Shown piece by piece: positions 3,666 through 37,488 of a DNA stretch of 64,000 bases. The notes beneath the pieces are model-generated. The model saw only the letters and a list, made by a program, of their open reading frames with translations, was not told where the DNA came from and searched no databases. The DNA comes from an uncultured Methanosarcinales archaeon (lineage in GTDB: Archaea; Nanobdellota; Nanobdellia; Woesearchaeales; CAXGTL01), in contig CAZYAB010000002.1 in assembly GCA_964645705.1 (NCBI GenBank), forward strand, positions 88,155 to 152,154, in the 5' to 3' direction. The position numbers were made by a program, and so were the translations under genes. Each line of letters opens with the position of its first letter. The stretch's first letter is position 1.

Positions 3666-4562
3666 TCAATCATCAAACTTTAATGTAAATATGTCGCCAT
3701 ATAAAGAATTCAATAATCTTGCTAGATTATGAAAATGAATAGTTGCTTTATTAACTTTTTTTGTTAATTTTATCTTATTCTTTAATCTATAAGTCATTAT
3801 AGAGTGTTCTTTGTACTTATTCACGTCATATTTATAGAATAATTCATGTGCTGCTCTTAGAATCTCTGTTATTTTATTTCTAAGTTTTCTACCTCTGTTT
3901 CTTGAACTAATATTTGAACAAAAATCTAATAATAACCACCTAAATTCATCAGATATTTTTTCTAGTCTGTCTAAAATTAAGTAATAAAGGTGGGTTTTTT
4001 TAAATTCAATGTGTCCTTTTTTCATGAGTATTCTTTGACAATAATTAATTAATTTCTTTATGTTTTTGTCTAAGGACTTTACTTGAATAGCATCAGCTTT
4101 GGCTTCTGAAAGTTCGATCAATAAAAGTAGTATTCTTCTAAATACAACTTTAAAATCTTCTTCTGATTCTTTTGTTATTTCTTTTATTATTATGTATTCA
4201 TTTTTTTGCTCAACTATTTCACAACCTATTAATTTTTGTTCTATTATCTCTATAATCCTTGACAATACTTTATTGTCGATAAAACTAATTTTTATTTCAT
4301 CAACACCTGCTCTATAGAGTCCTTGGAGAACCTTGATAATAGATCCAGCATAATCCTCAGAATTGATATTGTGTCTTTTTTGTGGTCCTTTGTGTGAAGA
4401 AATAATTATCTTATCACCAACTATGTCTAATTCGATTTTTCTTACTTTATCTAATCCTTCTTGTTTAACCCATTCTATTGGTAATGTCACTGTGTATGAT
4501 TTTCTTTTCTTTGGTCCTTGGGCTGTTAATTTCTTTTCCATATTCATTAGATATATTGCCAA
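3666..4562 (-). CDS. AbrB-PhoU type regulator paralog 2
   Basis: N-terminus 'KSYTVTLPIEWVKQEGLDKVRKIELDIVGDKIIISS', AbrB-like. The C-terminus has the same architecture as 1279-2211. Confidence 0.45.
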   Translation of the reverse strand: MAIYLMNMEKKLTAQGPKKRKSYTVTLPIEWVKQEGLDKVRKIELDIVGDKIIISSHKGPQKRHNINSEDYAGSIIKVLQGLYRAGVDEIKISFIDNKVLSRIIEIIEQKLIGCEIVEQKNEYIIIKEITKESEEDFKVVFRRILLLLIELSEAKADAIQVKSLDKNIKKLINYCQRILMKKGHIEFKKTHLYYLILDRLEKISDEFRWLLLDFCSNISSRNRGRKLRNKITEILRAAHELFYKYDVNKYKEHSIMTYRLKNKIKLTKKVNKATIHFHNLARLLNSLYGDIFTLKFDD

Positions 4563-5494: not shown

Positions 5495-5653
5495 TATGAA
5501 AAACGAATATGTAAAACGATTGGAAAACATTGCAGATGTTGTAAAAGAAATCTATGTACTGAATGCAGAATCAAAAGTACGTGAAGCACGAGAGTATAAA
5601 GTAATGAAGAATGGTGAAGTTTACTCTGCAAAAGAACTAAGACTATCACTTGA
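5495..5653 (+). CDS. hypothetical small protein (52 aa)
   Basis: 'CCAAGGTGAAAAATATG' leader paralogous to the one upstream of 5177. Not in the ORF track (<60 aa). Confidence 0.25.
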
Positions 5654-5697
5654 ATGATTTGAACAAATAAATTAATAAAGCAAGAGGCTGACAAAAA

Positions 5698-6468
5698 ATG
5701 AAAATAGCAAAAGGATTGTATGACGTGATTTTTAATAATTTTAAACCTAAAGCAAAATCACATGCTTGTACTGGCAGAATCCCTGATTATACAGAAGTAA
5801 TGGAAAGATTGAATTGGGGAAGAAAAGACGAACAATTCGAAATAAACAAAGCATTTTCACAGCCAATATATGAATCATTAGAGGCAATGCTTGGCAATTC
5901 TGTGAATAAGTATGGTTCCAGAAGAAAGATTGCTGAACTAGATGCATCACTATCAATGAACAGGTTTGGTTTTGATGGTTATGCTAGACAAGTTAGAGAT
6001 GTTCAAGAAGGAACAAAAGATTTCATGGTACACGGAAGTACAAATAAGTTAGGATATCATTTGTTGATAGATAATGATAATATTGAACTTTTGGTAGAAT
6101 ATAAAAAAGATAAAAACCCAGAAATCTTTATTTTCAATAGAAATAATCTAAATGATCGTTTACATTTTAGACTTGCTAAAGATGGTTCTGTTAATGTAGT
6201 TAATTCTTCAGGCATGACATGTGGACAAGCACTCAAAGTCTTCGAAGCTTACAAACCATTCTTGATAAAACTAAAACAAAACAAGAATTTCAAAGATTTA
6301 TACAAAAAAGATGAAGATGAAGAAAAAAATCATGCACTTGCAGCTTATCTAGATGAAGCACAAATCATGAAAGAAAAAATGGAGCTTAAGAAAAGGAAAA
6401 ATGAAAGAGAAAAATACCCAAAACATGTTTACACAAGCCCTAAGCAAATTAAAATCAATTTTAAATAA
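5698..6468 (+). CDS. hypothetical protein. Its stop lies 19 nt upstream of the ARC ATPase start, so it is possibly the first gene of the Pup-like operon
   Basis: ORF with an AGAGG RBS. No recognisable motifs. Confidence 0.45.
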   Translation: MKIAKGLYDVIFNNFKPKAKSHACTGRIPDYTEVMERLNWGRKDEQFEINKAFSQPIYESLEAMLGNSVNKYGSRRKIAELDASLSMNRFGFDGYARQVRDVQEGTKDFMVHGSTNKLGYHLLIDNDNIELLVEYKKDKNPEIFIFNRNNLNDRLHFRLAKDGSVNVVNSSGMTCGQALKVFEAYKPFLIKLKQNKNFKDLYKKDEDEEKNHALAAYLDEAQIMKEKMELKKRKNEREKYPKHVYTSPKQIKINFK

Positions 6469-6487
6469 AGAACAAGGAGGATTAAAA

Positions 6488-8047
6488 ATGACTGATGAAG
6501 AAAATATAATAAATATTGGTGAAACAATAAATAGACCTGATTTAAGACAAAGGCAACCAGATTTAGCACAACAAAACCTGGCGTTAAAAGATAGGCTAGG
6601 AAAATTCGAACTTTTAGCACACAAACAAAGAGAAAAGCTAGAAGAAGCACAAGCATTTGTTCAAAAAGTTTTATCACCGCCGCACACATTAGCAACATTG
6701 CTAAATTTTAATGAAGAAGTTGCTCAGGTTGTTATGGATAATGGACAAAAATTTGAAGTTAATTATATAAACGAATTATTAGAAAATTTTGAAAAAGGTC
6801 AAAGAGTTTACCTAAACCCGCAATCATTATCAATTGTAAAAATAAAAGACAAAGAAAATCATGGTTATTGTGCTGTTATTGACGATGTATTAGAAGACAG
6901 GGTTAAGATAACTATAGATGGCAGACAAAGACTGATTGACAAAGGCAATAATGGTGTAAACATAGGTGACACTGTGATTGTTGACGCATCATTGTCAATG
7001 GTATTAGAAGGACTTGGTAAACAAAGTAAAGATTATTCTGTAAACAAGATTGAAGAAGTAAGATGGGATATGATTGGTGGTTTGGATTATGCTGTTAATG
7101 ATATAATGAAGATAATTGAAGAACCATTTTTGCATAAAGAAACATATCAAAGATACGGACTTAGCATTCCAAAAGGAATATTGCTTCATGGTCCGCCTAG
7201 ATGTGGTAAGACAATGATTGCAAAAGCAGTTGCTTATTCATTGCAAGAAAAACTTAGACAAGAATCAGAAAACCCTGATCTAAAAGGAACTTTCTTTAGT
7301 ATAAAAGGACCAGAATTCCTTAGCAAATGGGTTGGTGAAGGAGAACGTATGGTAAGAGAATTATTTGATAGAGCAAGACAAGCTTCATATGAACACCAAG
7401 GAATGCCGACTATAATCTTTTTTGATGAAGCAGAATCCTCATTCAAGAAAAGAGGATCAGACATGTCAGCGCATTACATGGATCCATTGATAAACACATT
7501 TTTAGCTGAAATGGATGGTATGAATGGTTCAGATAACTTGATCTGGATCTTGGCAACTAATAGAGCAGACCTAATGGACCCTGCAATTTTAGGCCCTGGA
7601 AGAATAGATAAAAAGATCTATATTGGTAGGCCTGACAAAAAAGCATGCCAAGCAATATTCGAGATCTATCTAAAGAATGTCCCATTATATAATTCACATA
7701 CAATCGAACAGATTGCTGAACATGCTGCATCAGAATTATTCAGTGACAAGAGAAAAATTGCACAAGTTGATTTTGTAGATGGAATGAAAGATTTTATGCA
7801 TTATAGAGACATTGTAAGCGGAGCTCTTGTTAAATCAGTTGTTGACAATGCAATCAGGTATGCAATTGAAAGAGATATTGCGAATGGTGAAAGAGGAATC
7901 AAGCAAGAAGATTTGCTAAGAGCAATTGATGAAGTAATAAAAGCAGATGAAAAGGTTTTGCCAAGCATGATTCTTAAAGATGATATTGAGAACAAGTTTG
8001 GTAAGAGGTTCCAATATATCCAAGGAATCAATCCGTATAGCGGATAG
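6488..8047 (+). CDS. arc: ARC/Mpa-like proteasome-associated AAA+ ATPase (N-terminal coiled coil, tandem OB region, AAA module)
   Basis: 'GILLHGPPRCGKTMIAKAVA' (Walker A); 'FFSIKGPEFLSKWVGEGERMVRELFDRAR'; 'IIFFDEAESSF' (Walker B); 'ILATNRADLMDPAILGPGRID'. Near-collinear with Mpa/ARC. Strong GGAGG at 6475. The start is taken at M30 of the track ORF. Confidence 0.85.
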   Translation: MTDEENIINIGETINRPDLRQRQPDLAQQNLALKDRLGKFELLAHKQREKLEEAQAFVQKVLSPPHTLATLLNFNEEVAQVVMDNGQKFEVNYINELLENFEKGQRVYLNPQSLSIVKIKDKENHGYCAVIDDVLEDRVKITIDGRQRLIDKGNNGVNIGDTVIVDASLSMVLEGLGKQSKDYSVNKIEEVRWDMIGGLDYAVNDIMKIIEEPFLHKETYQRYGLSIPKGILLHGPPRCGKTMIAKAVAYSLQEKLRQESENPDLKGTFFSIKGPEFLSKWVGEGERMVRELFDRARQASYEHQGMPTIIFFDEAESSFKKRGSDMSAHYMDPLINTFLAEMDGMNGSDNLIWILATNRADLMDPAILGPGRIDKKIYIGRPDKKACQAIFEIYLKNVPLYNSHTIEQIAEHAASELFSDKRKIAQVDFVDGMKDFMHYRDIVSGALVKSVVDNAIRYAIERDIANGERGIKQEDLLRAIDEVIKADEKVLPSMILKDDIENKFGKRFQYIQGINPYSG

Positions 8048-8065
8048 AATCTAGGAGAAAACAAA

Positions 8066-11000
8066 ATGGCAATAAAGAGGACAATTGGATCTGAAACAGA
8101 ATATGGTATTTTAGGCACTGCAAAGACTGTTAGTCAATACACTTTAGCAGACAGAGTTGTTGATGCATATATAAGAGGACAAAATCATTTTAATAGTGGC
8201 GATACTAATGAATCTGTTATAGAAGATATGACTGATGATGGACACGTAGGTGGTGACTATGGTGCTGGCAGGTCAATAAGTGTTGGTGCAAGTGGTGCAT
8301 ATCCTGCATCAAGCGGATGGGGAAGAAACTATGATTATGGTTATCAAGGAACTCATGTTGCTTACAGAACTACTTATGTGGCTCCTGCAACAACATGTGC
8401 TAGTCATGATGTTAGCAAGATGATTGAAAATGGTTCAAGATTCTATGTTGACATGGGCCATCCAGAATTATCAACACCAGAATGTGCTGGTGCTGTTGAA
8501 TTCGTAATATATGATAAAGCAGGTGAAGTAATAGTTAACCAAGCAGCTAAAAAAGCATCAAACCCAAGAAACAAGATAACTATATTTAAGAATAATTCAG
8601 ATGGAAAAGGAAAATCATTTGGATGTCATGAAAATTATCTAATGCAAAGAATGACTCAGCAAGAATTTGCTAATAAATTAGCTCCAATACTGATTCCATT
8701 TTTTGTTACAAGACAGATCTTTACAGGTTCTGGTAAAATTGGTGTTGAAAAGCCAAGTGGACAAGGTGGAATAGAACATTATAGAAGAGACATATTAAAA
8801 GATTTTGAAATCCTGAGAACACATTTTATTGGTTTAGAAGATGAATATTCAATTGTTAGAAATAATATCCATGATTTGTTTAAATTATATGATAAAAGAG
8901 TAGGAAGTCAACAAGAAATATTTCAATTATCACAAAGAGCTGATTTTATGGAATGTAGGATTGGTCTTCAGACAACATACGATAGACCATTGGTTAATAC
9001 AAGAGATGAACCTCATGCTGATAAAGAAAAATATATGCGTCTTCACGTTATAGTTGGAGATGCAAACATGTCAGAGATAGCTGATTATCTAAAAGTTGGT
9101 ACAACATCACTTGTTTTGGATTTGATAGAAGATAATTTGTTTCAACCATTTCAATTAATGGATCCTGTTACAGCTATTAAATCAATTTCAAGAGACCAAA
9201 GCATGAAATGGATAACATCATTAAAAAATGGAAAAACTGTTTCAGCAATTGACATACAAAGATGGTACCTTGCTGCTGCTAAAAATAATTATGCAGGTAG
9301 AGACGAAATAACAGATGATATTCTTGCTAGATGGGAATATGTTTTAGACACACTAGAAAAAGATCCAATGGAATTATCTGGATGGGTAGACTGGGTCTTG
9401 AAAAAAGCAATGATCCAAGATTATATGGTAAAAAATCAAGTTCCTATTAATGATCCTGCTGTAAAAAACTTAGCATTACAATTTCATGATGTTGACAGAG
9501 AAACTAGTTTGTTCTACCTAATGCAAAGAAAAGGTTTTTCAGAAAGGTTAATTTCAGATGAACAAATACTAAATGCAGTTAATAATCCTCCAGAAAACAC
9601 TCGTGCATATTTCAGAGGAATGTGGTTAAAGAAATATGATATTGATAGAGCTGACTGGGGTGAACTAGAACTAACTGTAAATGGAACAAAAGTAGACATT
9701 AACATTGACGATCCCTTCAAAGGAACTAAAAAAGATTATGAAACATTGTTTGAGAAATGTGCAAATGCAGAAGAAGCTGTTGAAGAACTTAAGAAAGAAG
9801 AATATGATGTAACAGTTGATGAAAAAACACAGTCATGGGTTTCAAGAGGAATTGGTTTTGTTAAGAATAAGATAACTGGCAAAGGTAAGAAAAAAGCAAA
9901 GTCAAAAAAGAAATCAACAAAGAAAACAGCAAAAGTAAAGAGTGCAAAAGAACTAGCAACAGACCTACAAACAAAATCAGTAAAACAAAGACAATTAGAA
10001 ATACTTGATAACAGAACAAGTCCTGGAAGACAGATTGGTCAAACAAGTAGACAGCTTAGTTTTAATGATGTTGACGAACTTAGTGATAAGGTTATGGAAC
10101 AAGCTGAAAATGATTATGTCAGGTTTCATGACAATGAACTAGTCAGGTCAGAGTATGAAGCTTTAAGGGATATTGCATTACAATACTATAACAAACCTGT
10201 TGAAGAAATTTTTTGGAATATAGGATATGAAGAATATGGTAGCTATATTAGAATTGAAGGAAGGCATGTTGTTCAATTAAATTTAAGATATCAAAATTTA
10301 GTAGAGATCCCAGAACAAATAACTAGTTTTAACAAATTAAGGCATTTGGATTTAGAAGGTAATGAAATAACAGAAGTCAGTTATGTCGCAGATTTAGAAG
10401 AATTAACATACATTGATTTACAGGGAAATCCTATAGATGTTTATAAAAGTGCAGATGTGTTGAATGAATTGCATAAAAGGGAAGTAAGAATTCGTCCTCC
10501 AAAACTAGTTGATGAACTCTGTGATCTTAATTTAGAAGATTCTGTGTCAGCAGATGGTAAAGAAGTTTATGAGTTTAATGGAGAATTATTTGTTATTACA
10601 GATGAAAAAGAACAACCACAACCATCAGAACTCGACGAAACACAAGACGACATAAGCGACGTAGTCGAAGCTGTAATTTGTGGTGGTGCTGTAGGTAATG
10701 GCAATGTTGGCGTCATAGACGTAGGCGGTGACACTGTATATTTTCATGACAGAGAATTAGTTAGAGAAGAGTATGAGGCATTAGAAGATTTAGCACAACA
10801 ATATTTTGACAAAAGTGCTGATGAATATTTTAGCACAGATCTTCGTATATTAGATCCTAATTGTTTTGTTGACATTACCAATAGTCATGTAGCATGCATA
10901 ATGTTGTGTGATACAGGTTTAGAAGAAATCCCTGAACAAATTTCAAAGTTAAGCAAATTATTAAGACTTCACATTGGATACAATAAAATTTCAGATATTG

Positions 11001-11116
11001 AGTGTACTGATCAATTAAAATCACTTGATATTTTTGGTATAACTGACAATCCACTTAATGCTAAATCAAAAACAATAGTTGATTTACTAGATAAGAGTGG
11101 TGTTAATATAATTTAA
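8066..11116 (+). CDS. Pup ligase/deamidase family (PafA/Dop-like) paralog 1 (Dop-like by gene order). It has a K-rich linker and a C-terminal duplicated module containing leucine-rich repeats
   Basis: 'MAIKRTIGSETEYG', 'GCHENYLM', 'FFVTRQIFTGSGKIG', 'LKVGTTSLVLDLIED', 'RDEITDDILARWEYVLD'. LRRs: 'LRHLDLEGNEITEVSYVADLEELTYIDLQGNPI', 'LLRLHIGYNKISDIE'. Confidence 0.85.
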   Translation: MAIKRTIGSETEYGILGTAKTVSQYTLADRVVDAYIRGQNHFNSGDTNESVIEDMTDDGHVGGDYGAGRSISVGASGAYPASSGWGRNYDYGYQGTHVAYRTTYVAPATTCASHDVSKMIENGSRFYVDMGHPELSTPECAGAVEFVIYDKAGEVIVNQAAKKASNPRNKITIFKNNSDGKGKSFGCHENYLMQRMTQQEFANKLAPILIPFFVTRQIFTGSGKIGVEKPSGQGGIEHYRRDILKDFEILRTHFIGLEDEYSIVRNNIHDLFKLYDKRVGSQQEIFQLSQRADFMECRIGLQTTYDRPLVNTRDEPHADKEKYMRLHVIVGDANMSEIADYLKVGTTSLVLDLIEDNLFQPFQLMDPVTAIKSISRDQSMKWITSLKNGKTVSAIDIQRWYLAAAKNNYAGRDEITDDILARWEYVLDTLEKDPMELSGWVDWVLKKAMIQDYMVKNQVPINDPAVKNLALQFHDVDRETSLFYLMQRKGFSERLISDEQILNAVNNPPENTRAYFRGMWLKKYDIDRADWGELELTVNGTKVDINIDDPFKGTKKDYETLFEKCANAEEAVEELKKEEYDVTVDEKTQSWVSRGIGFVKNKITGKGKKKAKSKKKSTKKTAKVKSAKELATDLQTKSVKQRQLEILDNRTSPGRQIGQTSRQLSFNDVDELSDKVMEQAENDYVRFHDNELVRSEYEALRDIALQYYNKPVEEIFWNIGYEEYGSYIRIEGRHVVQLNLRYQNLVEIPEQITSFNKLRHLDLEGNEITEVSYVADLEELTYIDLQGNPIDVYKSADVLNELHKREVRIRPPKLVDELCDLNLEDSVSADGKEVYEFNGELFVITDEKEQPQPSELDETQDDISDVVEAVICGGAVGNGNVGVIDVGGDTVYFHDRELVREEYEALEDLAQQYFDKSADEYFSTDLRILDPNCFVDITNSHVACIMLCDTGLEEIPEQISKLSKLLRLHIGYNKISDIECTDQLKSLDIFGITDNPLNAKSKTIVDLLDKSGVNII

Positions 11117-11137
11117 AACACATGGAGGTATAAAAAA

Positions 11138-11308
11138 ATGGCAGAACAAAAATTCAAAAAGTTCAGACCACTGAACGAAGTAAAAGCAGACCAAAAACCA
11201 AAGTATGAGGTTAAAGCGCCAAACTTCGATGGTGTAATGGATGAAATGGATTATCTGATTAACAAAGATAATCTAGAAAAGAATTACAAGCAAACAAGCG
11301 CAGAGTAG
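11138..11308 (+). CDS. Pup-like small protein modifier candidate (56 aa, MAEQKFKKFRPLNEVKADQKPKYEVKAPNFDGVMDEMDYLINKDNLEKNYKQTSAE)
   Basis: GGAGG 9 nt upstream. It sits where pup lies in the actinobacterial arc-dop-pup order. The C-terminal half ('DGVMDEMDYLINKDN') resembles the Pup 'DDLLDEIDDVLEEN' Mpa-binding helix, and the terminal residue is Glu. Not in the ORF track (<60 aa). Confidence 0.45.
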   Translation: MAEQKFKKFRPLNEVKADQKPKYEVKAPNFDGVMDEMDYLINKDNLEKNYKQTSAE

Positions 11309-11321
11309 TTCGGTAAAAAAA

Positions 11322-11342
11322 TGTTTTTTTTATTTTTTTTTA
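11322..11342 (+). terminator. oligo-T tract (TTTTTTTTATTTTTTTTT) immediately after the Pup-like ORF. Candidate archaeal intrinsic terminator or attenuator
   Basis: A 19-nt T-run interrupted by a single A, 14 nt after the stop codon. Confidence 0.3.
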
Positions 11343-11372
11343 AGTAAAAGAGGTTTTGTTAGACAAGAGGCT

Positions 11373-13472
11373 ATGAAAATGCCAAGACTAGAGAAAAGAA
11401 TAATAGGACTTGAAACAAAGTATGGATTCATGCGGAGAGAATCAGATAGTCGCGACTCTGATGACATTAATCTTTTGTTAAAAAGGATTGCAGAAAATGC
11501 ACAATCAATATATGGCAGAGAATTCATAGAAAATGGCGGAAGAATAGTATCTGGTGATTATTATATCAAATACTGTACACCTGAAACATCTAACCCTGTT
11601 GACTTGGTAATATATGATAAAGCAGGAGAAGAAATTATTAGTCAAAACAGTGATGGTATGAGGTTTGTAAAAGATAAAACAGGAGGAACTCAAAGTGCTT
11701 TTTCCTGCCATGAGAATTATTTAATAAGAAAAGTAAGAACAGATAGAGAAGGTTTTATGCATGATCTGGGAAAATACCTTTTAGGATTTTTAATAACAAG
11801 ACAGATATTTTCAGGACCAGGAGACATTTATGGTAGTGAATTTGTTTTGTCTCAAAACATAATGCAGGGTTTAAATGAATATGACCTTGATTCAAAACAA
11901 TATTCAATAATGAATCTTAATTATAGAAAACCACCTATTGATTCAGACAAATACAGCATGTTGCATATTACATTAAACAAAGCAAATTTATCAGAAATAG
12001 CAACATATCTCAAAGTAGGCACAACAAGCTTGGTATTGGATTTAATAGAAGATGATCTGTGTCCTTTGATAACAATAATTAACCCTTCAGAAACTGCAAA
12101 AGATATTTCAAAAGACCAAACATATCAGTGGGAAGTTTTTACAGATTATGAAGAATCAACAACTGCAATCAACATACAAAGACAATATCTAGAAGCAGCA
12201 AAACAAGCATACACAGGAAGAGACGAAATAACAGATGATATTCTTGCTAGATGGGAATATGTTTTAGATTGTCTAGAAGAAGATCCAATGCAATTAACAG
12301 GCTGGATTGACTGGATAACAAAAAGAGCATTGATTGACAATATTTTTGAAAAACAAGACCCAGAAGTAATAGATTTTACAGTACAAAAAATAGATGAAGA
12401 ACAAGAAAAAATCAAAGCCCTAGAACAAGAAATACAAGACGTGATAAATGATTTTGATAATTCACAAGATACAAATGTGTTTCAAAAACTAAGCTCAATA
12501 AAAGACATACTCGAGATTATGAAAGACGGTGTTTATAGACAAAACAGAGGATTTAAAGCAGGTTTACAAGGAATCTTAAATGAAAGATCAAAGACAGTGA
12601 AAAAGATTATATCTAATTATCCAAGGATAAAAAAAGATGAAAGCTTGTTTTATACATTACAAAACAAAGAATTAGTTGACAGATTAATAACAGATGAACA
12701 AATACAGCAAGCCATGAATGAACCACCAAAAGACACAAGAGCTTGGATCAGAGGAAACATAATAAAATCATTCATGGAAAACCCAGATGACTTGACCAAA
12801 GTAGAATGGGACTGTGTTAAGATAAATGGTAAATACTTGCCTTTTAAAAATCCATTTTCAAACCCTGTAAGGTTCAGAGAAGTTTTACCTAGACACGCGT
12901 ATTCTGAATTTGAAGATAAGATCTTAGAACAATTAGATGATTTTATTCAGATCATAAGACAGAATAATGACACAGAATTTGCAGCACACGTAAAATATGA
13001 TTTATACACTGAAATATTAAAAAATTCTGTATTTAATCATGAATTTTTAGAACAAGAACTAGACATAGACAAACCACCTGAACTTGTTGTAGGTGAAAGA
13101 ATAAAACTATATAGAAATCTTGGAACATTAAATTGCGGATCAAGTAATACTTATTTTTATGATGGAAGTGTTGAAGATATCCCATTGGGTTCAACAGGAG
13201 TAATTGAAAAAATAAGATATATATTTTCAGATCTAAAGATAAAAGTAAACTTGGACAATGGAAGATCATGGTGGCTGGATTCAAGAGAATTAATGCCATT
13301 AGCAGATGAATCAATAACAATAGATAATATTATTCATCAAACATTGTTTGGAGATATTCAAGATCTGAGAGGAACTCAAAGAGAGAGAACATATCTTGAG
13401 AGAAAAAAAGAATTAGATAATTTACTCACTAAGATTATAATAAATTACCTGGATGATATAAATGAGGCTTGA
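11373..13472 (+). CDS. PafA/Dop-like paralog 2, with a variant active-site motif (LETKYG instead of ETEYG) and a ~250-aa C-terminal extension of unknown fold
   Basis: 'RLEKRIIGLETKYG', 'SCHENYLI', 'FLITRQIFSGPGDI', 'LKVGTTSLVLDLIED', 'RDEITDDILARWEYVLD'. Confidence 0.8.
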   Translation: MKMPRLEKRIIGLETKYGFMRRESDSRDSDDINLLLKRIAENAQSIYGREFIENGGRIVSGDYYIKYCTPETSNPVDLVIYDKAGEEIISQNSDGMRFVKDKTGGTQSAFSCHENYLIRKVRTDREGFMHDLGKYLLGFLITRQIFSGPGDIYGSEFVLSQNIMQGLNEYDLDSKQYSIMNLNYRKPPIDSDKYSMLHITLNKANLSEIATYLKVGTTSLVLDLIEDDLCPLITIINPSETAKDISKDQTYQWEVFTDYEESTTAINIQRQYLEAAKQAYTGRDEITDDILARWEYVLDCLEEDPMQLTGWIDWITKRALIDNIFEKQDPEVIDFTVQKIDEEQEKIKALEQEIQDVINDFDNSQDTNVFQKLSSIKDILEIMKDGVYRQNRGFKAGLQGILNERSKTVKKIISNYPRIKKDESLFYTLQNKELVDRLITDEQIQQAMNEPPKDTRAWIRGNIIKSFMENPDDLTKVEWDCVKINGKYLPFKNPFSNPVRFREVLPRHAYSEFEDKILEQLDDFIQIIRQNNDTEFAAHVKYDLYTEILKNSVFNHEFLEQELDIDKPPELVVGERIKLYRNLGTLNCGSSNTYFYDGSVEDIPLGSTGVIEKIRYIFSDLKIKVNLDNGRSWWLDSRELMPLADESITIDNIIHQTLFGDIQDLRGTQRERTYLERKKELDNLLTKIIINYLDDINEA

Positions 13473-15084
13473 GAAAAGAATAATTGGACTTGAAACAGAG
13501 TATGGATCATTTTCACAAGATTTAGCTAGATCAAGGGATGGTGAGGATGGTCACCATGATGCACACAATAACAGACTAATAGAAACAATAAGAGAAGCAA
13601 GACCAAGAAGCGGAAACTCTTTTTTATTAAATGGTGGAAGAATGTATGAAGATTGTGGCCATATTGAATATTGTACACCAGAAACAACTAATCCTGTTGA
13701 CTTGGTTTTATATGAAAAAGCAGGAGAAAGATTGCTTAACCAGCATTCAAGAGGAGTTATGTTTATCAAGAACAATGTTGCTGCAAATAACAGTACATTT
13801 GGATGTCATGAAAATTATTTAATCAAAAGGCCTGAACATTTTATAAATGAAGTAGGAAGATATCTAATGTCATTCCTAGTAACAAGACAAATCTATGCAG
13901 GAACAGGAGATATTTATGAGAATAAATTTAGAATATCACAAAAATCAAGATTTATTACCGAAAACTATGGTAAAAATACAACCAGAGATAGACCAATAAT
14001 CAATCTAAAAGATGAATCTCATTGCGGTGGTAAAGAAAGCGAGAATTATAGATTACATCTTATATTAGGCGATTCAAATTTATCAGAAATAGCAACTTAT
14101 CTAAAAGTAGGTACAACAAGCTTAGTATTGGATTTGATTGAAGATGGAATTTGCCCTTACATTAGTTTATACAATCCTGTTTATGCTCTTCATGAGATTT
14201 CACAAGACTTGACATTTAAGATAGAAAATAAAATAAATGATTCCAGACCAATGACAGCAATCAACATACAAAGACAATATCTAAAAGCAGCAAAAAAAGC
14301 ATACACAGGAAGAGACGAGATTACTGACGATATTCTTGCTAGATGGGAATATGTTCTGGATTGTTTAGAAACAGATCCAATGAAACTTGACACATGGATT
14401 GATTGGGTTATAAAGAAAAGCTTGATTGATAAAAGTCTTGATAAGAATAGTAATTTTAGTGAAACAATTAGAAAAGAATTAGTTAATTTACAACAAAAAA
14501 TAGCATCCGCATATCAAAAAATATCAGAATCAAAAACATTATTATTACCAGATAACCAAATAATCAGAGCAGATAATTTACTTATTCAAGCAATGTCTAG
14601 TATTACGAACATAATTGATGAAGATGTTTATTCACCTATTAAAGAATTTGTAAATGGTAGAAATTTTGAAGAGTTTGATGTAAACAAGATATCAAAAAAT
14701 ATTTCATACAAATATCATAGTACTGATCCTAATAATAGTTTATTTTATTTTTTACAAAACAATGGCATGATTGACAGACTAGTATCAGATGAACAAATAA
14801 CGCATGCTGTAAATAATCCTCCTCAAGACACAAGAGCTTGGGTCAGAGCAAAAATTTTGTCAGAAATAAGAGGATTAGGAGGATCAGTAGAACAAATGGA
14901 TTGGTCAGCGATCAGTGTTTATCATCCTAATCTTAGTGGTGGAAGAGTTATGAAACCTAAATGTGCTAGATGCAGTGCAGACTGTAAAGGTTATGTTAAT
15001 TCAAATGGAAAAGAGTTTGATCTTACAGATCCTTTTGACAATAAAAAACAAGAATATGAAGAAATGGTTAGAGACATTCGTTAG
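13462..15084 (+). CDS. PafA/Dop-like paralog 3 (canonical ETEYG). Overlaps paralog 2 by 11 nt and has a short Cys-containing tail
   Basis: 'MRLEKRIIGLETEYG', 'GCHENYLI', 'FLVTRQIYAGTGDI', 'RDEITDDILARWEYVLD'. The tail is 'CARCSADCKG'. Confidence 0.8.
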   Translation: MRLEKRIIGLETEYGSFSQDLARSRDGEDGHHDAHNNRLIETIREARPRSGNSFLLNGGRMYEDCGHIEYCTPETTNPVDLVLYEKAGERLLNQHSRGVMFIKNNVAANNSTFGCHENYLIKRPEHFINEVGRYLMSFLVTRQIYAGTGDIYENKFRISQKSRFITENYGKNTTRDRPIINLKDESHCGGKESENYRLHLILGDSNLSEIATYLKVGTTSLVLDLIEDGICPYISLYNPVYALHEISQDLTFKIENKINDSRPMTAINIQRQYLKAAKKAYTGRDEITDDILARWEYVLDCLETDPMKLDTWIDWVIKKSLIDKSLDKNSNFSETIRKELVNLQQKIASAYQKISESKTLLLPDNQIIRADNLLIQAMSSITNIIDEDVYSPIKEFVNGRNFEEFDVNKISKNISYKYHSTDPNNSLFYFLQNNGMIDRLVSDEQITHAVNNPPQDTRAWVRAKILSEIRGLGGSVEQMDWSAISVYHPNLSGGRVMKPKCARCSADCKGYVNSNGKEFDLTDPFDNKKQEYEEMVRDIR

Positions 15085-20527: not shown

Positions 20528-22747
20528 ATGAATACAACTTCAGAACAAAAATCCTCAACATCTCATCTTGAAGGATTTTTAAGAAAAATAGATCAACTTA
20601 GTATTTTACAAACTCCTGCTAATGAACTTAGAGATTATGATCCTGAACTTGAAGAAACTAATGAAGACTTGCTTAGACAAGAAGCATCTGAATTAGAAAG
20701 AAAAGTATCTGAATTATTAGAACTTGAACCTAATTCTAAAGATATTGCAACATATATTATAAAAAATGGTCTAGATCCAGAATTATTCATGGATTTGATT
20801 GAACAAAAATATACTGATTTTAAAACATTAAAAGGGGGTAATAGCAGGTCTTGTTTTGAAGCAAAATGGGGTGCTCATGAATTAGTTTTCAAATTTGATG
20901 TTTTGCATGATTATGATAATGATGATAATAGGGGCGGAACAAACATAGATGAAATAGAAGCATTATTACACTTGCCCGATCCAGAATTACATAACATAGT
21001 TGAGATGAAGGGTTTTATTGATCTAACAAAATATAATGGAAAAGGTTATTTAACTATTGAAAAAAAGTTTGATGGTGTTTCTTTATTTGATTATGTTCAA
21101 GAACATGGACCACTATCTGCAAAACAATTTGAACAATTAGTTCCAGAAGTTTTAAAAGCACTTAGTCATTCATATGCAAAAGAATACAAAGGCAGACCAA
21201 AACCACAGATTCTTCACAGAGATTTTCATGCAGGAAACATACTTATAAAGTGTGAGTATAATGAAAACATAAATCCAATTTTTCGTGATGAAAGTGTACT
21301 TTGGGTTCGTGGTAGTGAAGACATAAAAGAAGTTAGAATAACAGATTTTGCAACAGCTTCAAAAAGCGAAGATTTAGAATCTAAGACAGAACAAAGCGTT
21401 ACAATACATGCTTTATCAATACAAGATCCATTATTAAGTTATACTTTTACAAGAAAAGAAACAAAATATTCCCCAGCTTCACAACTTTATGAACTAGGTG
21501 TTGATCTTTATTATTCTTTGACAAAAAGATCAATATTTACATTTAATTCAAAACAAAAGATTGCAGAAGTTAAAAAGACTGGTGAAAGTTTATTGAACGA
21601 AGACGGAACATTGAACATAGATCTTTATGAAAAAGCATTAGATAATGCTTTAGACAAACTTCCAGATGAAGTAAAAGCATATAAAGATATATTATTTAAT
21701 CTTTTAAGCTTAAAACAAAGAGTAGATGATCCAGAAATAAACCCTAATTATGATTCTGAAAATCCTTTTGATGATTTAATTGAAGATTTTAAACAAACAA
21801 AACAACTCAATTATGATGCTAATCTTGCTAAAATTAGAGAAAAGGCAGAAAAGGATAAATTAGAGTTAGAAAATATAACAAAACCAATATATGAAAAACA
21901 ACCTTTTTACAAAAGATTATTAGGAAATAAGTTTGCACTTGCAACTGGCGCGCTTGGTTTGATAGGATTGTTAGTGTTTGGAAGAGGCATGTATGCTGGT
22001 AAAGAAACAAAAGTTTTTGAACATCCGCCAATTGCAGCACAAACAGAAAAACAACCAGAAGAACAACAAGAAGAAAACATGCCAATTGCCGAACAACCAG
22101 CACAACCAGAAGAAAACATAATACCAGAACAAATAAGAGAACCAGAACAAGAAAATAAAAAACCACAAATGAATACACAAAAATTAAGTCTTGAAAACAA
22201 GATTCAAAATGGTGCTTATGTTGATGTTAATAATGGTGATTGGAGATATGTAAAGAGTTATTTTGATTATGATTTGCAAACTAATTTAAATAAGCATCAA
22301 CACAAATCTAATGGTACTATAATTGATGTCACTGATCTTAATATTGTGAAAGATACTTTTATTCCAACAGCAGTTAATGAGATTAAAAACAATGCTTATG
22401 TTGATGTTAAGAATAGTGATTGGAAATATGTAAAGAGTTATTTTGATTATGATTTGCAAACTAATTTAAATAAGCATCAACACAAATCTAATGGTACTAT
22501 AATTGATGTCACTGATCTTAATATTGTGAAAGATACTTTTATTCCAACAGGAGTTAATGAGATTAAAGAGCACGCATATATTGATACTAAGAATGGTGAT
22601 TGGAAACCTGTAAAGAATTATTTTGATTATGATTTTAATACTCATTTATACAAGTATCAGCACAAAGAAAATGGTTCTATAATTGAAGTTACTGATCTTA
22701 ATATTGTGAAAAGATTTACAATACCAACTAATGTAACTGCAAACTAA
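20528..22747 (+). CDS. membrane-anchored Hanks-type (eukaryotic-like) protein kinase domain protein. It has an N-terminal kinase, one TM helix, a P/E/Q-rich linker and three tandem ~60-aa C-terminal repeats
   Basis: 'ILHRDFHAGNILIK' (catalytic loop HRD...N), 'ITDFATAS' (DFG-like), Gly-rich 'LKGGNSRSCFEA', 'VFKF'. The TM helix is 'FALATGALGLIGLLVFG'. Confidence 0.6.
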   Translation: MNTTSEQKSSTSHLEGFLRKIDQLSILQTPANELRDYDPELEETNEDLLRQEASELERKVSELLELEPNSKDIATYIIKNGLDPELFMDLIEQKYTDFKTLKGGNSRSCFEAKWGAHELVFKFDVLHDYDNDDNRGGTNIDEIEALLHLPDPELHNIVEMKGFIDLTKYNGKGYLTIEKKFDGVSLFDYVQEHGPLSAKQFEQLVPEVLKALSHSYAKEYKGRPKPQILHRDFHAGNILIKCEYNENINPIFRDESVLWVRGSEDIKEVRITDFATASKSEDLESKTEQSVTIHALSIQDPLLSYTFTRKETKYSPASQLYELGVDLYYSLTKRSIFTFNSKQKIAEVKKTGESLLNEDGTLNIDLYEKALDNALDKLPDEVKAYKDILFNLLSLKQRVDDPEINPNYDSENPFDDLIEDFKQTKQLNYDANLAKIREKAEKDKLELENITKPIYEKQPFYKRLLGNKFALATGALGLIGLLVFGRGMYAGKETKVFEHPPIAAQTEKQPEEQQEENMPIAEQPAQPEENIIPEQIREPEQENKKPQMNTQKLSLENKIQNGAYVDVNNGDWRYVKSYFDYDLQTNLNKHQHKSNGTIIDVTDLNIVKDTFIPTAVNEIKNNAYVDVKNSDWKYVKSYFDYDLQTNLNKHQHKSNGTIIDVTDLNIVKDTFIPTGVNEIKEHAYIDTKNGDWKPVKNYFDYDFNTHLYKYQHKENGSIIEVTDLNIVKRFTIPTNVTAN
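22201..22740 (+). repeat. 3 x 180-bp direct tandem repeat inside the kinase gene (copies 1 and 2 near-identical, copy 3 diverged)
   Basis: Lines 22261-22320 and 22441-22500 are identical. The period is exactly 180 nt. Confidence 0.85.
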
Positions 22748-23661
22748 CTCTTAATTATACCAATCAATGCACTGCTGCAATGATAAAACATTCTTATTGT
22801 ATTAATTAAATAATGAATTACAGGTTTTTCATTGTCTTTTTTAGAATCAAGGCTTTTTATGCCAAACTTGAATGCATAAGTAGTCTCAATGTTATGTATG
22901 TCTTTAACAATATTCAAATCTTTTGTAACATAAAGTGAATGTAATTTATCTAATTGTTCTTTAGAAGCTTTTAATAGTTTTCTGATGTCTGAATTCATTT
23001 TTATCTTGTTTCTATAAACATGATCATTAAGAAAACCAAGATTTCTTACTGCGAGTGTTATGTTTGATAAGAATAACCAATAAATAGGTGCAAGTTTAGT
23101 AGAAAATAGACCTTTTGAAATACATCTTCTTAAGAAATTAGCATATTTATGAACACTTATTGCAAGTTCTTCTGCTTCTTTGAATTCTTGTCTTTTCCTT
23201 TTTGTGATATTGGTTTCTAATATTCTTATTATTTCTTTTAAAATAAAGAATTCTTTGTTAATTATAGTATTAAAATTCTCAATACTTGGCTCTGTTATTG
23301 ATTCTATAACGCAATCTTTGTCAGATCTTGATTTTATGTCAAAACCTATGATTCCTGTTTCAACTGTTTTTTTGATTGTTTTTAGTGCTTTTTTATCTTC
23401 AAATTTAATAGTAATTTTGTCATATCCTTGCCTGTAAAGGTTGACAATCACTCTTCGTATGATGCTCTGTTCTGATATTGGCAATTTAACTGTTGTTTCT
23501 AATCTTTGTTTTTTTTTCTTTGACTCAATCACTAGTTTATTATTCTCTTCATCGACGTCAACTTCGTCTCCTGCTTTTAATCCAATCTTATTAATCCACT
23601 TCTTAGGAACATAGATTGTCAAGCCACCGCCTCCGCCTTGCTTGATCAATTTTCTTTTCAT
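22744..23661 (-). CDS. AbrB-PhoU type regulator paralog 3
   Basis: N-terminus 'MKRKLIKQGGGGGLTIYVPKKWINKIGLKAGDEVDV'. Collinear with 1279-2211. Confidence 0.5.
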   Translation of the reverse strand: MKRKLIKQGGGGGLTIYVPKKWINKIGLKAGDEVDVDEENNKLVIESKKKKQRLETTVKLPISEQSIIRRVIVNLYRQGYDKITIKFEDKKALKTIKKTVETGIIGFDIKSRSDKDCVIESITEPSIENFNTIINKEFFILKEIIRILETNITKRKRQEFKEAEELAISVHKYANFLRRCISKGLFSTKLAPIYWLFLSNITLAVRNLGFLNDHVYRNKIKMNSDIRKLLKASKEQLDKLHSLYVTKDLNIVKDIHNIETTYAFKFGIKSLDSKKDNEKPVIHYLINTIRMFYHCSSALIGIIKS

Positions 23662-23830: not shown

Positions 23831-24055
23831 ATGGAGATGATGACTATGTCAAGATACAAAACAAAACATACAGGCATGAAAACAATAATACTGTCTGCAA
23901 TAGGGGCATATGCACTAACTAAATTTATGTGTCCTGATTTTGATATCCTTCCTGATTTTAATTATGATAAATCAACAGAAGTGTATCAAACAAGACAAGC
24001 ACAAGAATTCCAACATCCTGTGATTGGAATCACAACTGAGCATAATAGAGGTTAA
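23831..24055 (+). CDS. small membrane protein (74 aa). First gene of a long co-directional array
   Basis: ORF containing a hydrophobic helix 'IILSAIGAYALTKFM'. Confidence 0.3.
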   Translation: MEMMTMSRYKTKHTGMKTIILSAIGAYALTKFMCPDFDILPDFNYDKSTEVYQTRQAQEFQHPVIGITTEHNRG

Positions 24056-24059
24056 TAAA

Positions 24060-24953
24060 ATGAATAATAAAAATAAACTAACTTTAGGAGCAATTTTATT
24101 AGGATCAATGTATTTTTTAAATCCTTTTTCAACACCTGTTAGAGCCCAGGAATTACATATGAATGGCGAATATTCTGGAGAAAAAGTAACAATACAACAA
24201 CCACAAGTACCAAAAACACAACAATCAGTAGATAATGTTATTGAAAGAACAGAAGCAATAAAAGAATATAATCGAATGAATGATTTATTCCAATCTCATG
24301 TATTTGGTGATGGCTATACAAAAGAGAATCCTGCTTGGGGTTCTATTTATGAAAGATTGCACACTGCTGTGAAAAGAAAACGTAAGCAAGATGATCTTGA
24401 TTATAAAGTAGATGGTAATACAAGTCAAAATGATTTGAATTTTTTGGTTGACCACATGGATGATGATATAAGTAATTTTAATTTGGATAAAATAAAAAAT
24501 AGAACAAGAATGTTCAAACTTGCTTATGTAGTAAGAGATAAGACAGAGTTTAACAAAGAACTAAACAAATATCGCAAAGCTGTTAATTTTTTCAAACTAA
24601 ATCTTTATGGAAATGGTTGCGAAGAGTTTCCTGGTTTTGGTTCTATTGCTGAAAGATATTTAAGACTTAGATCAGAAGGAAACTTGCTAAGATATGGAAT
24701 TGTTCTAAATAATCATGAATTTAGATTTTTGATAGATCACAAAGATGATAATGCTAATCATCTTGGCATAAGAGAAATTCAAAAAAGAACAGACTTGTAT
24801 GAAGAAGCAAATGTAATCAAACACAAAAACAAGTCTGAAAGAAACAAAGAAAGAATTAAGAACGGCTTGAAAGAAGCAGGTGACAAAGTAAAAAAGATTG
24901 CACCTGTGTATAAAGACCTAAAAAAAGCAAAAGAGATTACAGGCGGACTTTAA
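24060..24953 (+). CDS. secreted protein with an internal two-fold duplication (signal peptide 'MNNKNKLTLGAILLGSMYFLNPFSTPVRAQE')
   Basis: The repeats 'FGDGYTKENPAWGSIYERL' and 'YGNGCEEFPGFGSIAERYL' are followed by 'FLVDHMDDD' and 'FLIDHKDDN'. Confidence 0.45.
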   Translation: MNNKNKLTLGAILLGSMYFLNPFSTPVRAQELHMNGEYSGEKVTIQQPQVPKTQQSVDNVIERTEAIKEYNRMNDLFQSHVFGDGYTKENPAWGSIYERLHTAVKRKRKQDDLDYKVDGNTSQNDLNFLVDHMDDDISNFNLDKIKNRTRMFKLAYVVRDKTEFNKELNKYRKAVNFFKLNLYGNGCEEFPGFGSIAERYLRLRSEGNLLRYGIVLNNHEFRFLIDHKDDNANHLGIREIQKRTDLYEEANVIKHKNKSERNKERIKNGLKEAGDKVKKIAPVYKDLKKAKEITGGL

Positions 24954-24965
24954 GAGGTTAAGAAA

Positions 24966-25412
24966 ATGAATGAACTAGAAAAAATAATGTCAAAACATAA
25001 AGAACCTGAACAATCACAACAAACGCAAGAATCTCTATACAAACCAAAATTTGATGCGTTTGGTATTATGGCAGTAGGTCTTGCATCAACATTATTAACA
25101 ATCTTTGGGCTTTGCATTGGAATTGAAATGTATGAAACAAAAAGATTTAACAGAGAAACACCTATCAATGATTCTCTTTGGGATCTGAGGTTTGCACGAG
25201 CAGATGACAGCTATGATTTAGTTAATACGTATATGAATAGAGATTCAGGTGAAATTATTTATATTAATGAGTCTCAGAGAATAGTTTCTTCTGATGCTCC
25301 AGAAGGTGTAAAAAACAGTACCAAGGGCAGATATGTTTCTAAAGAAGAATTGTACAATGATTGGCAATATGTTGGTCAAGAAAAACAAACTAAGGAGAGT
25401 GAAACAAAATGA
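24966..25412 (+). CDS. membrane-anchored protein (N-terminal TM). Paralog of 26130-26843
   Basis: TM helix 'FGIMAVGLASTLLTIFGLCIGI'. Shares 'YINESQRIV' and 'YNDWQYVG' motifs with 26130. Confidence 0.4.
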   Translation: MNELEKIMSKHKEPEQSQQTQESLYKPKFDAFGIMAVGLASTLLTIFGLCIGIEMYETKRFNRETPINDSLWDLRFARADDSYDLVNTYMNRDSGEIIYINESQRIVSSDAPEGVKNSTKGRYVSKEELYNDWQYVGQEKQTKESETK

Positions 25413-26128: not shown

Positions 26129-26129
26129 A

Positions 26130-27598: not shown

Positions 27599-27868
27599 GT
27601 GGATAAACAAATGTTTGAAAAAAAACCACAACAATATGGAGTAGTAATGCTTAGTAAAGATCAAGACATTAGTTATAAGATTTCACAGATCTTTAATGAT
27701 AATAATGGACAAGTAGATTTGCGCGTCATGTGTCAAGAACTGTTATTGAGATTTAATTTTCTTCCAATGAGATTTGTCTCTGCTGACAAAGAAAAAAAGA
27801 TTTCAAATTACAGAGAATTAGGTCTTTCTCTTTACCCAATAATTGATAATATAATCTATGAAAAATGA
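27599..27868 (+). CDS. small hypothetical protein
   Basis: ORF with tight coupling on both sides. Confidence 0.35.
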   Translation: MDKQMFEKKPQQYGVVMLSKDQDISYKISQIFNDNNGQVDLRVMCQELLLRFNFLPMRFVSADKEKKISNYRELGLSLYPIIDNIIYEK

Positions 27869-30605: not shown

Positions 30606-30607
30606 AA

Positions 30608-31305: not shown

Positions 31306-31553
31306 AAAAACCTTCAATCATGGACAAAGATCTGGAATTAACAATAAAATTAGAATCATCTTCACATTTTTTAGATGCAATGGCTGTTTTGACAGTTTTT
31401 CCTCTTTTTGCAGGCATTGACATGTATTGCGATGGTGCAAACCCTCAACTAGGCGCAGCTTTAGTTCTATACTCAGTAGCACAGTTAGGACTTTATCTAG
31501 CAGACGGACTATCTATTAAAAAAGGAATTTATTATCATTCGGAGGATAAATAA
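31302..31553 (+). CDS. small membrane protein
   Basis: Two hydrophobic helices. Confidence 0.35.
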   Translation: MKKPSIMDKDLELTIKLESSSHFLDAMAVLTVFPLFAGIDMYCDGANPQLGAALVLYSVAQLGLYLADGLSIKKGIYYHSEDK

Positions 31554-31554
31554 A

Positions 31555-32133: not shown

Positions 32134-32136
32134 AAA

Positions 32137-36852: not shown

Positions 36853-37488
36853 TTATTCTTTTAATCTTGTATCAAGTTCTTTTTCAATAACTCTTTTAAC
36901 ACCATCTTTGGTGATTGTCAATACGTCTACTCCGTTTCCAGAAGCAATGTCTCTTTGCATTGCAGCATTCACAGATTTTAATGCAAGCTTTACTCCTTCA
37001 TCAACAGTCATAGCTTCTTTATATAATGTTTCTAAAACACCAAAAGCATAAACAGATCCTGACCCAGAACATGTGAAATCTTTGTGTTCTGATAATGATC
37101 CATCAGGAAAAATATCATAAAGAGTAAATCCAGAATTATCAACACCAGCAAACAAGAAATGAGATATTCCTGGTATTGTTGAGAACTTTCTTATGTTTTG
37201 ATAAACTAGTCCTGCTAATAAGTTAGCAGTTTCTTTAACAGTAGGATCTCTATCAACTCTAATAGATTTTAGCTTTATCTCTGCCCTTACTAGTTTAACC
37301 ATGAGCTGTATATCAGAAACAGTGCCTGCTGTTGTAAGAGCCATTTTATTAGTGATTTCGTGTATTTTTTGTTCTTTTTTATGCATTACTAAGTATCCTG
37401 CCGTTGCTCTTTTATCAGCAGCTAAAACTATTCCATCTTTACATACAATTCCTATAGTTGTAGTACCAGTTTTCAGAGTTTTTTCCAT
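36853..37488 (-). CDS. psmB: proteasome beta subunit (propeptide 'MEKTLKTG' followed by catalytic Thr1 in 'TTTIGIV')
   Basis: The N-terminus is typical of the Ntn-hydrolase 20S beta subunit ('TTTIGIVCKDGIVLAADKRAT'). Confidence 0.85.
   Translation of the reverse strand: MEKTLKTGTTTIGIVCKDGIVLAADKRATAGYLVMHKKEQKIHEITNKMALTTAGTVSDIQLMVKLVRAEIKLKSIRVDRDPTVKETANLLAGLVYQNIRKFSTIPGISHFLFAGVDNSGFTLYDIFPDGSLSEHKDFTCSGSGSVYAFGVLETLYKEAMTVDEGVKLALKSVNAAMQRDIASGNGVDVLTITKDGVKRVIEKELDTRLKE

Follow-up and report, generated by a model that had tools for sequence, protein, structure and literature searches.

We found a pupylation-type gene cassette in an archaeal genome. It lies in a 64,000-nucleotide stretch of assembly GCA_964645705.1 (contig CAZYAB010000002.1, positions 88,155 to 152,154), here called the window, and comprises genes for an Mpa/ARC-like AAA+ ATPase, three proteins of the PafA/Dop family and a small tag homologous to Pup (Table 1). 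The host is a tiny, uncultured archaeon of the Woesearchaeota (DPANN). We put the probability at about 0.6 that the cassette is a genuine pupylation-type system of this lineage, inherited within it and working by the mechanism proposed below; that it is a real archaeal Pup-type conjugation system appears highly probable.

Tag, enzymes and ATPase of the cassette

The tag gene encodes MAEQ...DGVMDEMDYLINKDNLEKNYKQTSAE (full form MAEQKFKKFRPLNEVKADQKPKYEVKAPNFDGVMDEMDYLINKDNLEKNYKQTSAE) behind a GGAGGT ribosome-binding site 8 nt upstream, and its product ends ...YKQTSAE, with a terminal Glu and no Gly-Gly. By sequence it is a diverged Pup, because three kinds of profile comparison agree. A hidden Markov model (HMM) built from ten syntenic small open reading frames (ORFs), the window excluded, found it among 2993 ORFs at E=2.6e-9 (34.7 bits), the next unrelated ORF standing at E=2.7; the same model matches 61 of 62 GG[QE]-ending small ORFs from bacterial reference loci, the top ten at 28-33 bits. 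Alignment by hhalign of the archaeal-type small ORFs with actinobacterial Pup gave 97.4% probability (E=1.3e-11) over 30 C-terminal columns. Tag homologues of three related loci (L004, L007 and L091) match Pfam Pup below threshold, at 15-20 bits, with alignments that end at the last profile position.

An ORF of 56-89 aa lies between the Dop-like and PafA-like genes in every cassette of this kind, in at least 10 other loci, and the common C-terminal pattern of these ORFs is ..hLD.ID.Lh.K.NL...Y.Q...[QE]. The endings are QQGGQ, QKGGQ, QTGGQ or QSGGQ at most loci, QSSGQ at L008, QSSAQ at L009 and QTSAE in the window, so that the relatives form a graded series GGQ, SGQ, SAQ, all copies ending in Gln or Glu. 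A chance small ORF was considered and rejected. Contigs from several samples, 9 in number, encode an identical tag protein. When 5.8 billion proteins were searched by words for the 56-aa tag, it matched nothing but itself. A first-pass annotation of this DNA had placed a Pup-like gene in arc-dop-pup order, and both the gene and the order, which is that of the bacterial reference loci, are confirmed here.

All three PafA/Dop-family proteins exceed the gathering threshold of Pup_ligase (PF03136, 25 bits), and the Dop and PafA equivalogs are their sole strong NCBIfam matches. Their catalytic state was counted over 102 alignment columns that are invariant across 20 bacterial PafA and Dop sequences. 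The 1016-aa protein, with only 9 of these positions altered, retains the catalytic set and has an intact active site; it scores higher with TIGR03688 (Dop, 431 bits) than with TIGR03686 (PafA, 346 bits). Over its N-terminal 580 residues it shares 47% identity with the 589-aa HLC73494.1, a 'PafA2 family protein' of a Candidatus Nanoarchaeia archaeon. The Dop-loop, 40-65 conserved residues before strand beta2, is found in all Dop and in no PafA (PMC8599861). A 107-aa insertion stands at exactly this position in the 1016-aa protein and is conserved within its clade; the loop before beta2 measures 78-114 aa in the archaeal clade, compared with 67-68 aa for bacterial Dop and some 36 aa for PafA. 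The C-terminal extension holds two modules (aa 683-809 and 889-1015), each combining a helical motif with leucine-rich repeats (LRR; Pfam LRR_8 52 bits, LRR_4 36 bits), which form an internal duplication with an alignment score of 192. No LRR modules were found in the other archaeal-type Dop-like proteins sampled.

The 540-aa protein is the best candidate for the ligase. It matches Dop and PafA crystal-structure sequences (phmmer, 1e-69 and 3e-57), and with 19 of the 102 invariant positions altered it keeps both ETEYG glutamates, R-x-Y-x-D, H-x-E and HENY. Its loop before beta2 (41 aa), like that of the 699-aa paralogue (35 aa), is PafA-like, without a Dop-loop. With TIGR03686 the two proteins score 294.5 and 201.8 bits respectively, and their Dop scores equal or slightly exceed these. 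The best non-self full-length matches of the 540-aa protein include Planctomycetota-labelled (PafA2) proteins; a scan of genome contigs with this protein yielded no relatives.

The 699-aa protein, in which 40 of the 102 positions are altered, is to judge from its residues a pseudoenzyme. It reads ETKYG and SCHENYL, with E16K in ETEYG, Y to V59, the catalytic D to G61, H to Y64 and E to K66, and several further Arg, His and Asp residues are also lost. Three PafA/Dop paralogues carrying ETEYG and GCHENYL had been reported for this locus: the family membership of all three stands, as do the ETEYG glutamates and HENY of the 540-aa protein, but the second paralogue has neither motif intact and no catalytic Asp. 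A C-terminal extension of about 200 aa in the 699-aa protein has no assigned fold, its AlphaFold2 (AF2) model being unusable (predicted local distance difference test score, pLDDT, 35). The 540-aa and 699-aa paralogues are sisters with bootstrap 1.00, and therefore point to a lineage-specific duplication. A third PafA-like gene is also present at L113:217-8154 and L122:8637-13343; the copies in L113 are 747 aa long, with 31 of the 102 invariant positions altered, and 490 aa long. Partly degenerate paralogues thus arise repeatedly in the family.

The presence of an Mpa/ARC ATPase, previously proposed, is borne out: the best of all NCBIfam AAA models for this protein is TIGR03689 'proteasome ATPase' (Mpa/ARC) at 354 bits, the alignment covering 5-485 of the 512 model positions; PAN reaches 214 bits, and Pfam AAA gives 114 bits. 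The top single-module PDB match is Mpa (5kwa_A, query residues 93-541), and identity to the ATPases of related cassettes is 37-42%. The true start is likely M30, nt 6488, since MTDEEN... fits the N-termini of relatives and the 519-aa gene call of another assembly. The architecture is a predicted coiled coil, an OB region and a single AAA module, with about 170 residues from the helical N-terminus to Walker A; alignment with Mpa 5kwa_A suggests two OB domains. The protein ends ...GINPYSG.

Table 1. Coordinates in the window of the cassette genes and of other features discussed in the text
Feature	Position	Strand	Remarks
256-aa protein, function not assigned	5698..6468	+	First gene of the packed run; membership of the system uncertain
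Mpa/ARC-like AAA+ ATPase	6488..8047 (ORF opens 6401)	+	TIGR03689, Pfam AAA
Dop-like protein, 1016 aa	8066-11116 (catalytic part 8066..9835)	+	PF03136 460 bits
C-terminal extension of the Dop-like protein	10112..11110	+	Two modules of about 127 aa after a Lys-rich linker
Pup homologue (tag), 56 aa	11138..11308	+	Between the first and second PafA/Dop genes
T-rich tract	11309..11345	+	Right behind the tag gene; read from the sequence
PafA-like pseudoenzyme, 699 aa	11373..13472	+	PF03136 256 bits
PafA-like enzyme, 540 aa	13462..15084	+	PF03136 363 bits; intact catalytic core
20S proteasome beta subunit, archaeal	36853..37488	-	TIGR03634 208 bits; Pfam Proteasome 175 bits

The six plus-strand ORFs at 5698-15084 are separated by 18-64 nt or overlap slightly. 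The locus had earlier been drawn from 5698; its first ORF is an unrelated protein, which stops 20 nt ahead of the likely ATPase start, matches no Pfam or NCBIfam family over threshold, has no homologue in the related loci and gave an unusable single-sequence AF2 model (pLDDT 41). The T-rich tract behind the tag gene is a possible archaeal oligo-T termination or attenuation signal. Immediately upstream of the locus, at 5497-5657 (+), is a 53-aa ORF (MKNEYVKRLENIADVVKEIYVLNAESKVREAREYKVMKNGEVYSAKELRLSLE) preceded by a GGTGA ribosome-binding site; other assemblies also annotate a gene here. Its product has a C-terminal Glu, belongs to no family and shows no similarity to Pup. Within the locus, a 101-nt segment of the Dop-like gene (9294-9394) is 88% identical to one in the gene of the 699-aa paralogue (12214-12314); it encodes ..GRDEITDDILARWEYVLD.., a peptide present also in the 540-aa paralogue. 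In other assemblies, contigs end near 11353-11361 and 12239-12248. The repeat and the contig breaks suggest gene conversion among the PafA/Dop paralogues, and the repeat may be the cause of the breaks.

Archaeal host and related cassettes

The window has a GC content of about 30% along its whole length. Archaeal neighbours reported at first pass are confirmed: at 34.9-39.0 kb we find aCPSF1 (TIGR03675, 871 bits), the proteasome beta subunit of archaeal type and family-I ProRS, AbrB/MazE-domain proteins are encoded nearer the cassette, and Cbf5 is just outside the window. The proteasome beta gene adjoins aCPSF1 and encodes a short propeptide followed by TTT, with Thr1 intact. The closest named relatives of the aCPSF1 (69-74% identity) are nearly all 'Candidatus Woesearchaeota archaeon' or 'Nanoarchaeota archaeon', and a single 236,815-bp contig is on record for both this aCPSF1 and the Pup ORF. 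Five independent assemblies (JGI, ENA, Logan) cover window positions 1138-25264 at 99.75-100% identity, all intra-locus junctions included. GC at third codon positions (GC3) is 0.17-0.24 in the locus genes and 0.18 +/- 0.03 in their neighbours, the exception being the tag ORF (57 codons) at 0.39. With this tiling and a GC3 like that of the neighbours the locus is therefore not chimeric; a bacterial or chimeric contig, raised at first pass as what would overturn the finding, is ruled out by the archaeal genes, the independent tiling and the uniform GC and GC3. Scans of the window for tRNA and Rfam families gave no matches, and a Sigma-70 promoter and terminator scan gave fewer sites than shuffled sequence, the model being bacterial and uninformative for an archaeal host.

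The cassette, in the order ATPase, long Dop-like gene, small ORF, PafA-like gene, occurs in at least 10 other lineages, among them L004-L009 and the JGI loci L091-L122. At the HLC73494.1 locus, labelled Candidatus Nanoarchaeia by NCBI, the order is ATPase, a 112-aa ORF, Dop-like gene, a 56-aa GGQ-ending ORF and PafA-like gene. In L007, a 406-kb NCBI contig, the four-gene core lies about 2.9 kb upstream of rpoH-rpoB-rpoA of the archaeal RNA polymerase. It is also carried by many of the 33 JGI contigs that a DNA-pattern search for YVDMGHPE, a motif specific to the clade, recovered. Among the matches listed in a contig scan with an alignment there were only bacteria, at no more than 42% identity; their loci served as references. 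Against 1.84 billion cluster representatives a profile of the Dop-like clade matched 2973 PafA/Dop clusters at E<=1e-30; only about six exceed 540 bits, and the clade is therefore small.

We examined the arrangement around the cassette and compared it with 57 bacterial reference loci with full flanks. In these the ATPase lies upstream in 53 and Pup follows Dop; 51 have a proteasome beta gene downstream. The ATPase gene is always adjacent in archaeal-type loci, and pafA is adjacent as well, not distant; in the window the 20S beta gene is about 22 kb from the cassette. A tetratricopeptide repeat (TPR) protein, AbrB/MazE-domain proteins of about 300 aa and a Ser/Thr kinase flank the cassette in the window, L004 and L009. 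The diverged relatives with the same cassette and neighbours have GC of 0.30-0.40, and from the recurrent TPR, AbrB and kinase neighbours we argue for shared ancestry of the region.

The window has three paralogous proteins of about 300 aa with an AbrB/MazE (SpoVT-type) N-terminal domain (1279-2211, 3666-4562 and 22744-23661, all minus strand), one of them convergent with the Ser/Thr kinase gene at 20528-22747. The kinase and AbrB-like pair stands next to the cassette in two diverged relatives (AbrB-like genes at L004:4484-5386 and L009:6646-7569), and may have a regulatory link to it. The kinase gene shows a length polymorphism at about 22199-22715, with 739 aa in the window and 679 aa in the ENA scaffold L001; the 180 nt (60 codons) extra in the window look like a tandem duplication or a deletion. 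A more distant second group with the YVDMGHPE motif (L097, L109, L118, L092, L095 and L106/L110) has larger ATPases, of 635-797 aa, and its Pup-like ORFs end in KQKGGE or KQRGGQ; it may bridge the archaeal and bacterial clades.

An approximate tree of the PafA/Dop family (neighbour-joining, 414 columns, 200 bootstraps) has bacterial PafA (0.99) and bacterial Dop (0.98) each monophyletic, with every archaeal-type sequence outside both; the Dop-like protein of the window clusters with those of L004, L008, L009, L102 and L113 (0.89). A recent transfer from bacteria to archaea is therefore unsupported, and any transfer would be old and could have run in either direction. Recent transfer from high-GC Actinobacteria was considered and rejected, given the host-like codon composition and the placement of the enzymes outside the bacterial clades. 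The locus had been read at first as either the horizontal acquisition of a bacterial system or a lineage-specific elaboration. The placement of the enzymes, the host-like codons and the presence of the cassette in diverged relatives speak against the former, and the latter is the better fit.

Elsewhere in the window, at least 11 consecutive same-strand ORFs (24024-34924, plus strand, 124-629 aa) all lack a Pfam match and are possible cell-surface or mobile-element genes. A 1015-aa ORF at 44491-47538 (-) has no Pfam or NCBIfam match and the maximal GC of the window (0.36, against about 0.30). One protein at 54443-55582 (-) joins an N6/N4 DNA methylase domain to an Mrr-type restriction endonuclease domain. 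A full-length serpin (60816-62075, plus strand; Pfam 394 bits) is encoded in this DPANN archaeon, with peptidase S51 and DUF1846 genes nearby. The 10 kb upstream of the window (L131:1-10023, JGI contig Ga0117914_1000487) hold six successive ORFs of 318-669 aa, four of them about 650 aa, which directly precede the window; none has a Pfam match, and they may be a paralogous family.

Proposed mechanism and alternatives

From homology we infer the following scheme, including every activity, the division between ligation and removal and the link with the 20S. The tag would be made ligation-ready; it ends in Glu and therefore should need no deamidation. Pup is ligated through its terminal Glu (PMC8599861). 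The 540-aa enzyme would phosphorylate the gamma-carboxylate of this Glu at the expense of ATP and ligate the tag to lysines. The Dop-like enzyme would take the tag off, its LRR modules probably limiting removal to particular partners, and in relatives with Gln-ending tags it would also deamidate the tag. The 699-aa paralogue is probably a non-catalytic adaptor, binding Pup or substrates, or a regulator. The ATPase would bind and unfold tagged proteins, probably handing them over to the archaeal 20S.

Several results weigh against this scheme. Pfam Pup (PF05639, threshold 27 bits), suggested at first pass as a check on the small ORF, does not match it even at E<=10, its homology having been found by other profiles. 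Iyer et al. (2008) described Pups as 50-90 residues long, with a G[EQ] signature in all; the length and terminal Glu of the tag fit Pup, but its penultimate Ala breaks the signature. The scores of the ATPase, the Dop-like protein and the two PafA-like proteins lie under the curated cut-offs of TIGR03689 (504.75 bits), TIGR03688 (492.3 bits) and TIGR03686 (551.3 bits), respectively. The archaeal insertion at the Dop-loop position has its own motif and no motif in common with the bacterial Dop-loop (motifs compared: ..WDYE..P..DARG and H.N...TN.S...D.GGH.GGDY). In the tree the deeper nodes lack resolution, and one-to-one orthology of the archaeal proteins with PafA and Dop was not recovered by neighbour-joining. 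No archaeal-type locus has 20S genes in the flanks of its cassette. Nor does any of 13 archaeal-type cassette ATPases have a GxYx or HbYX C-terminal tail, the tails being variable and none with a penultimate Tyr; GxYx is the 20S docking element in Mpa (PMC6466877). For want of a linked proteasome gene and of such an ending the coupling to the 20S is the weakest step of the scheme, and whether the system feeds the 20S could go either way. The system also falls short of the 'complete' one first described, linked 20S genes and the docking tail both being absent.

The main rival, possible though appreciably less probable, keeps the same tagging chemistry but uncouples it from the proteasome, the tag and the ARC-like ATPase serving as a stand-alone system of unfolding, disassembly or regulation. 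It would account for the tails of the 13 ATPases and for the absence of flanking proteasome genes from all archaeal-type cassettes against their presence in 51 of 57 bacterial loci, while the recurrent Ser/Thr kinase, AbrB-like and TPR neighbours suggest a regulatory setting. Such a system has been reported for Corynebacterium glutamicum, where pup, dop, pafA and arc occur without a 20S, and Bifidobacterium likewise has pupylation without a proteasome. This genome, however, encodes a 20S beta subunit with intact Thr1, and missing linkage does not equal missing function; Mpa itself docks only weakly, and docking can take other forms. It seems improbable that the cassette is an antiviral or conflict system, its LRR modules sensing an invader and tagging marking it, by analogy with bacterial ubiquitin-like defence. 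The fusion of LRR modules to the Dop-like enzyme, the lineage-specific diversification of paralogues, and a nearby methyltransferase and kinase with weak matches to defence-associated models would suit such a role, but PADLOC finds only generic AAA, kinase and methyltransferase similarity and nothing for the ligases or the tag; moreover the LRR fusion was seen in the window alone, and the core cassette is stably kept beside housekeeping genes.

A reading of the PafA/Dop homologues as carboxylate-amine ligases or amidases with a small molecule or peptide as substrate, the small ORF being no tag, is very unlikely. The family does belong within the glutamine-synthetase / gamma-glutamyl-cysteine-ligase fold (Iyer et al., 2008), and the window ORF has neither Gly-Gly nor a Pfam Pup match; yet at least 10 other loci have in the same place a small ORF with a Gln or Glu end and a Pup profile-profile match, and an Mpa-like ATPase is linked in every cassette. 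Least credible of all is a recent horizontal acquisition from bacteria, or a bacterial/archaeal assembly chimera. Pupylation had been known from bacteria only (Iyer et al., 2008; Hecht et al., 2020, PMC7947786), and Planctomycetota-labelled proteins are among the best full-length matches of the 540-aa paralogue. Against this stand the tiling by five assemblies, the host-like GC3, the position outside bacterial PafA (0.99) and Dop (0.98), and the conservation of cassette and neighbours in diverged archaeal relatives, one of them by an RNA polymerase operon.

Relation to known tagging systems and significance

The actinobacterial Pup-proteasome system, with mpa-dop-pup-prcBA and pafA in Mycobacterium tuberculosis, shares with this cassette the same four protein families, the ATPase-dop-pup order, the same catalytic residues, and a tag design of C-terminal helix and terminal Gln or Glu. 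Here the host is archaeal, the enzymes lie outside the bacterial clades and score under the equivalog cut-offs, pafA is adjacent and not distant, prcBA is unlinked, the ATPase lacks a GxYx tail, the tag ends SAE in place of GG[QE], and there is an extra pseudo-ligase; the Dop-like enzyme also stands apart in its loop motif, a second insertion and its LRR modules. C. glutamicum and Bifidobacterium are alike in having tag, ligase, depupylase and ARC ATPase without linked 20S genes, and differ in host, enzyme clades and tag terminus; here a 20S beta gene is found elsewhere in the genome.

Sporadic Pup/PafA systems outside Actinobacteria, in Nitrospirae, Planctomycetes ('PafA2'), Verrucomicrobia and Deltaproteobacteria (Iyer et al., 2008; Hecht et al., 2020, PMC7947786), likewise have diverged PafA/Dop homologues beside a small Pup-like gene. 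In Planctomycetes just one homologue is present, and a membrane protein is linked to it (Iyer et al., 2008; Hecht et al., 2020, PMC7947786); here, in contrast, two to three homologues and an ATPase form a fixed cassette in archaea.

With the archaeal SAMP/PAN/Cdc48/20S pathway the presumed purpose is common, a small C-terminally conjugated lysine tag in an archaeal host with a 20S, whereas chemistry and folds are unrelated. In SAMPs, which have the beta-grasp fold, an E1-like adenylating enzyme activates a Gly-Gly carboxylate; in the present system a ligase of the glutamine-synthetase fold would attach a disordered-type tag via a Glu side chain. Among the ORFs scanned in the window, none came up as an E1 or SAMP gene.

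We found no description of archaeal pupylation in full-text searches on pupylation, Pup, PafA or Pup-ligase together with archaea, DPANN, Woesearchaeota or metagenome-assembled genomes, in keeping with the first-pass annotation, which knew of no such system. Hecht et al. (2020, PMC7947786) have pupylation arising in Actinobacteria and transferred to a few bacterial phyla, with no archaea mentioned, and a 2020 review of archaeal protein modifications makes no mention of Pup. The proteins themselves are already public, some with automatic 'PafA2 family' labels. What is new lies not in the chemistry, which is familiar, but in the domain of life, the clades of the enzymes and the accessory parts.

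The finding reopens the origin of pupylation, of the ARC ATPase and of their relation to 20S transfer between domains, and offers a candidate degradation-tagging route for small-genome archaea. It also supplies natural variants against which current mechanistic ideas can be checked: a tag lacking Gly-Gly, a loop of another kind where the Dop-loop sits, a dead PafA paralogue, and a Dop-like enzyme with fused LRR modules that resembles a substrate-specific deconjugase. All of them lend themselves to direct tests with recombinant proteins. A bolder and rather doubtful proposal is that pupylation with the ARC ATPase is an old vertical trait of a DPANN (Woesearchaeota/Nanoarchaeia) lineage, whose enzyme clades branch outside the split between bacterial PafA and Dop. 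If so, bacteria could have taken over the Pup-proteasome system, along with the 20S, from archaea, and it would not be an actinobacterial invention. SAMPs and ubiquitin-like systems would then be joined by a third route of lysine tagging in archaea, and an LRR-bearing depupylase and a pseudo-ligase adaptor would be the substrate-selective parts that evolved in this organism.

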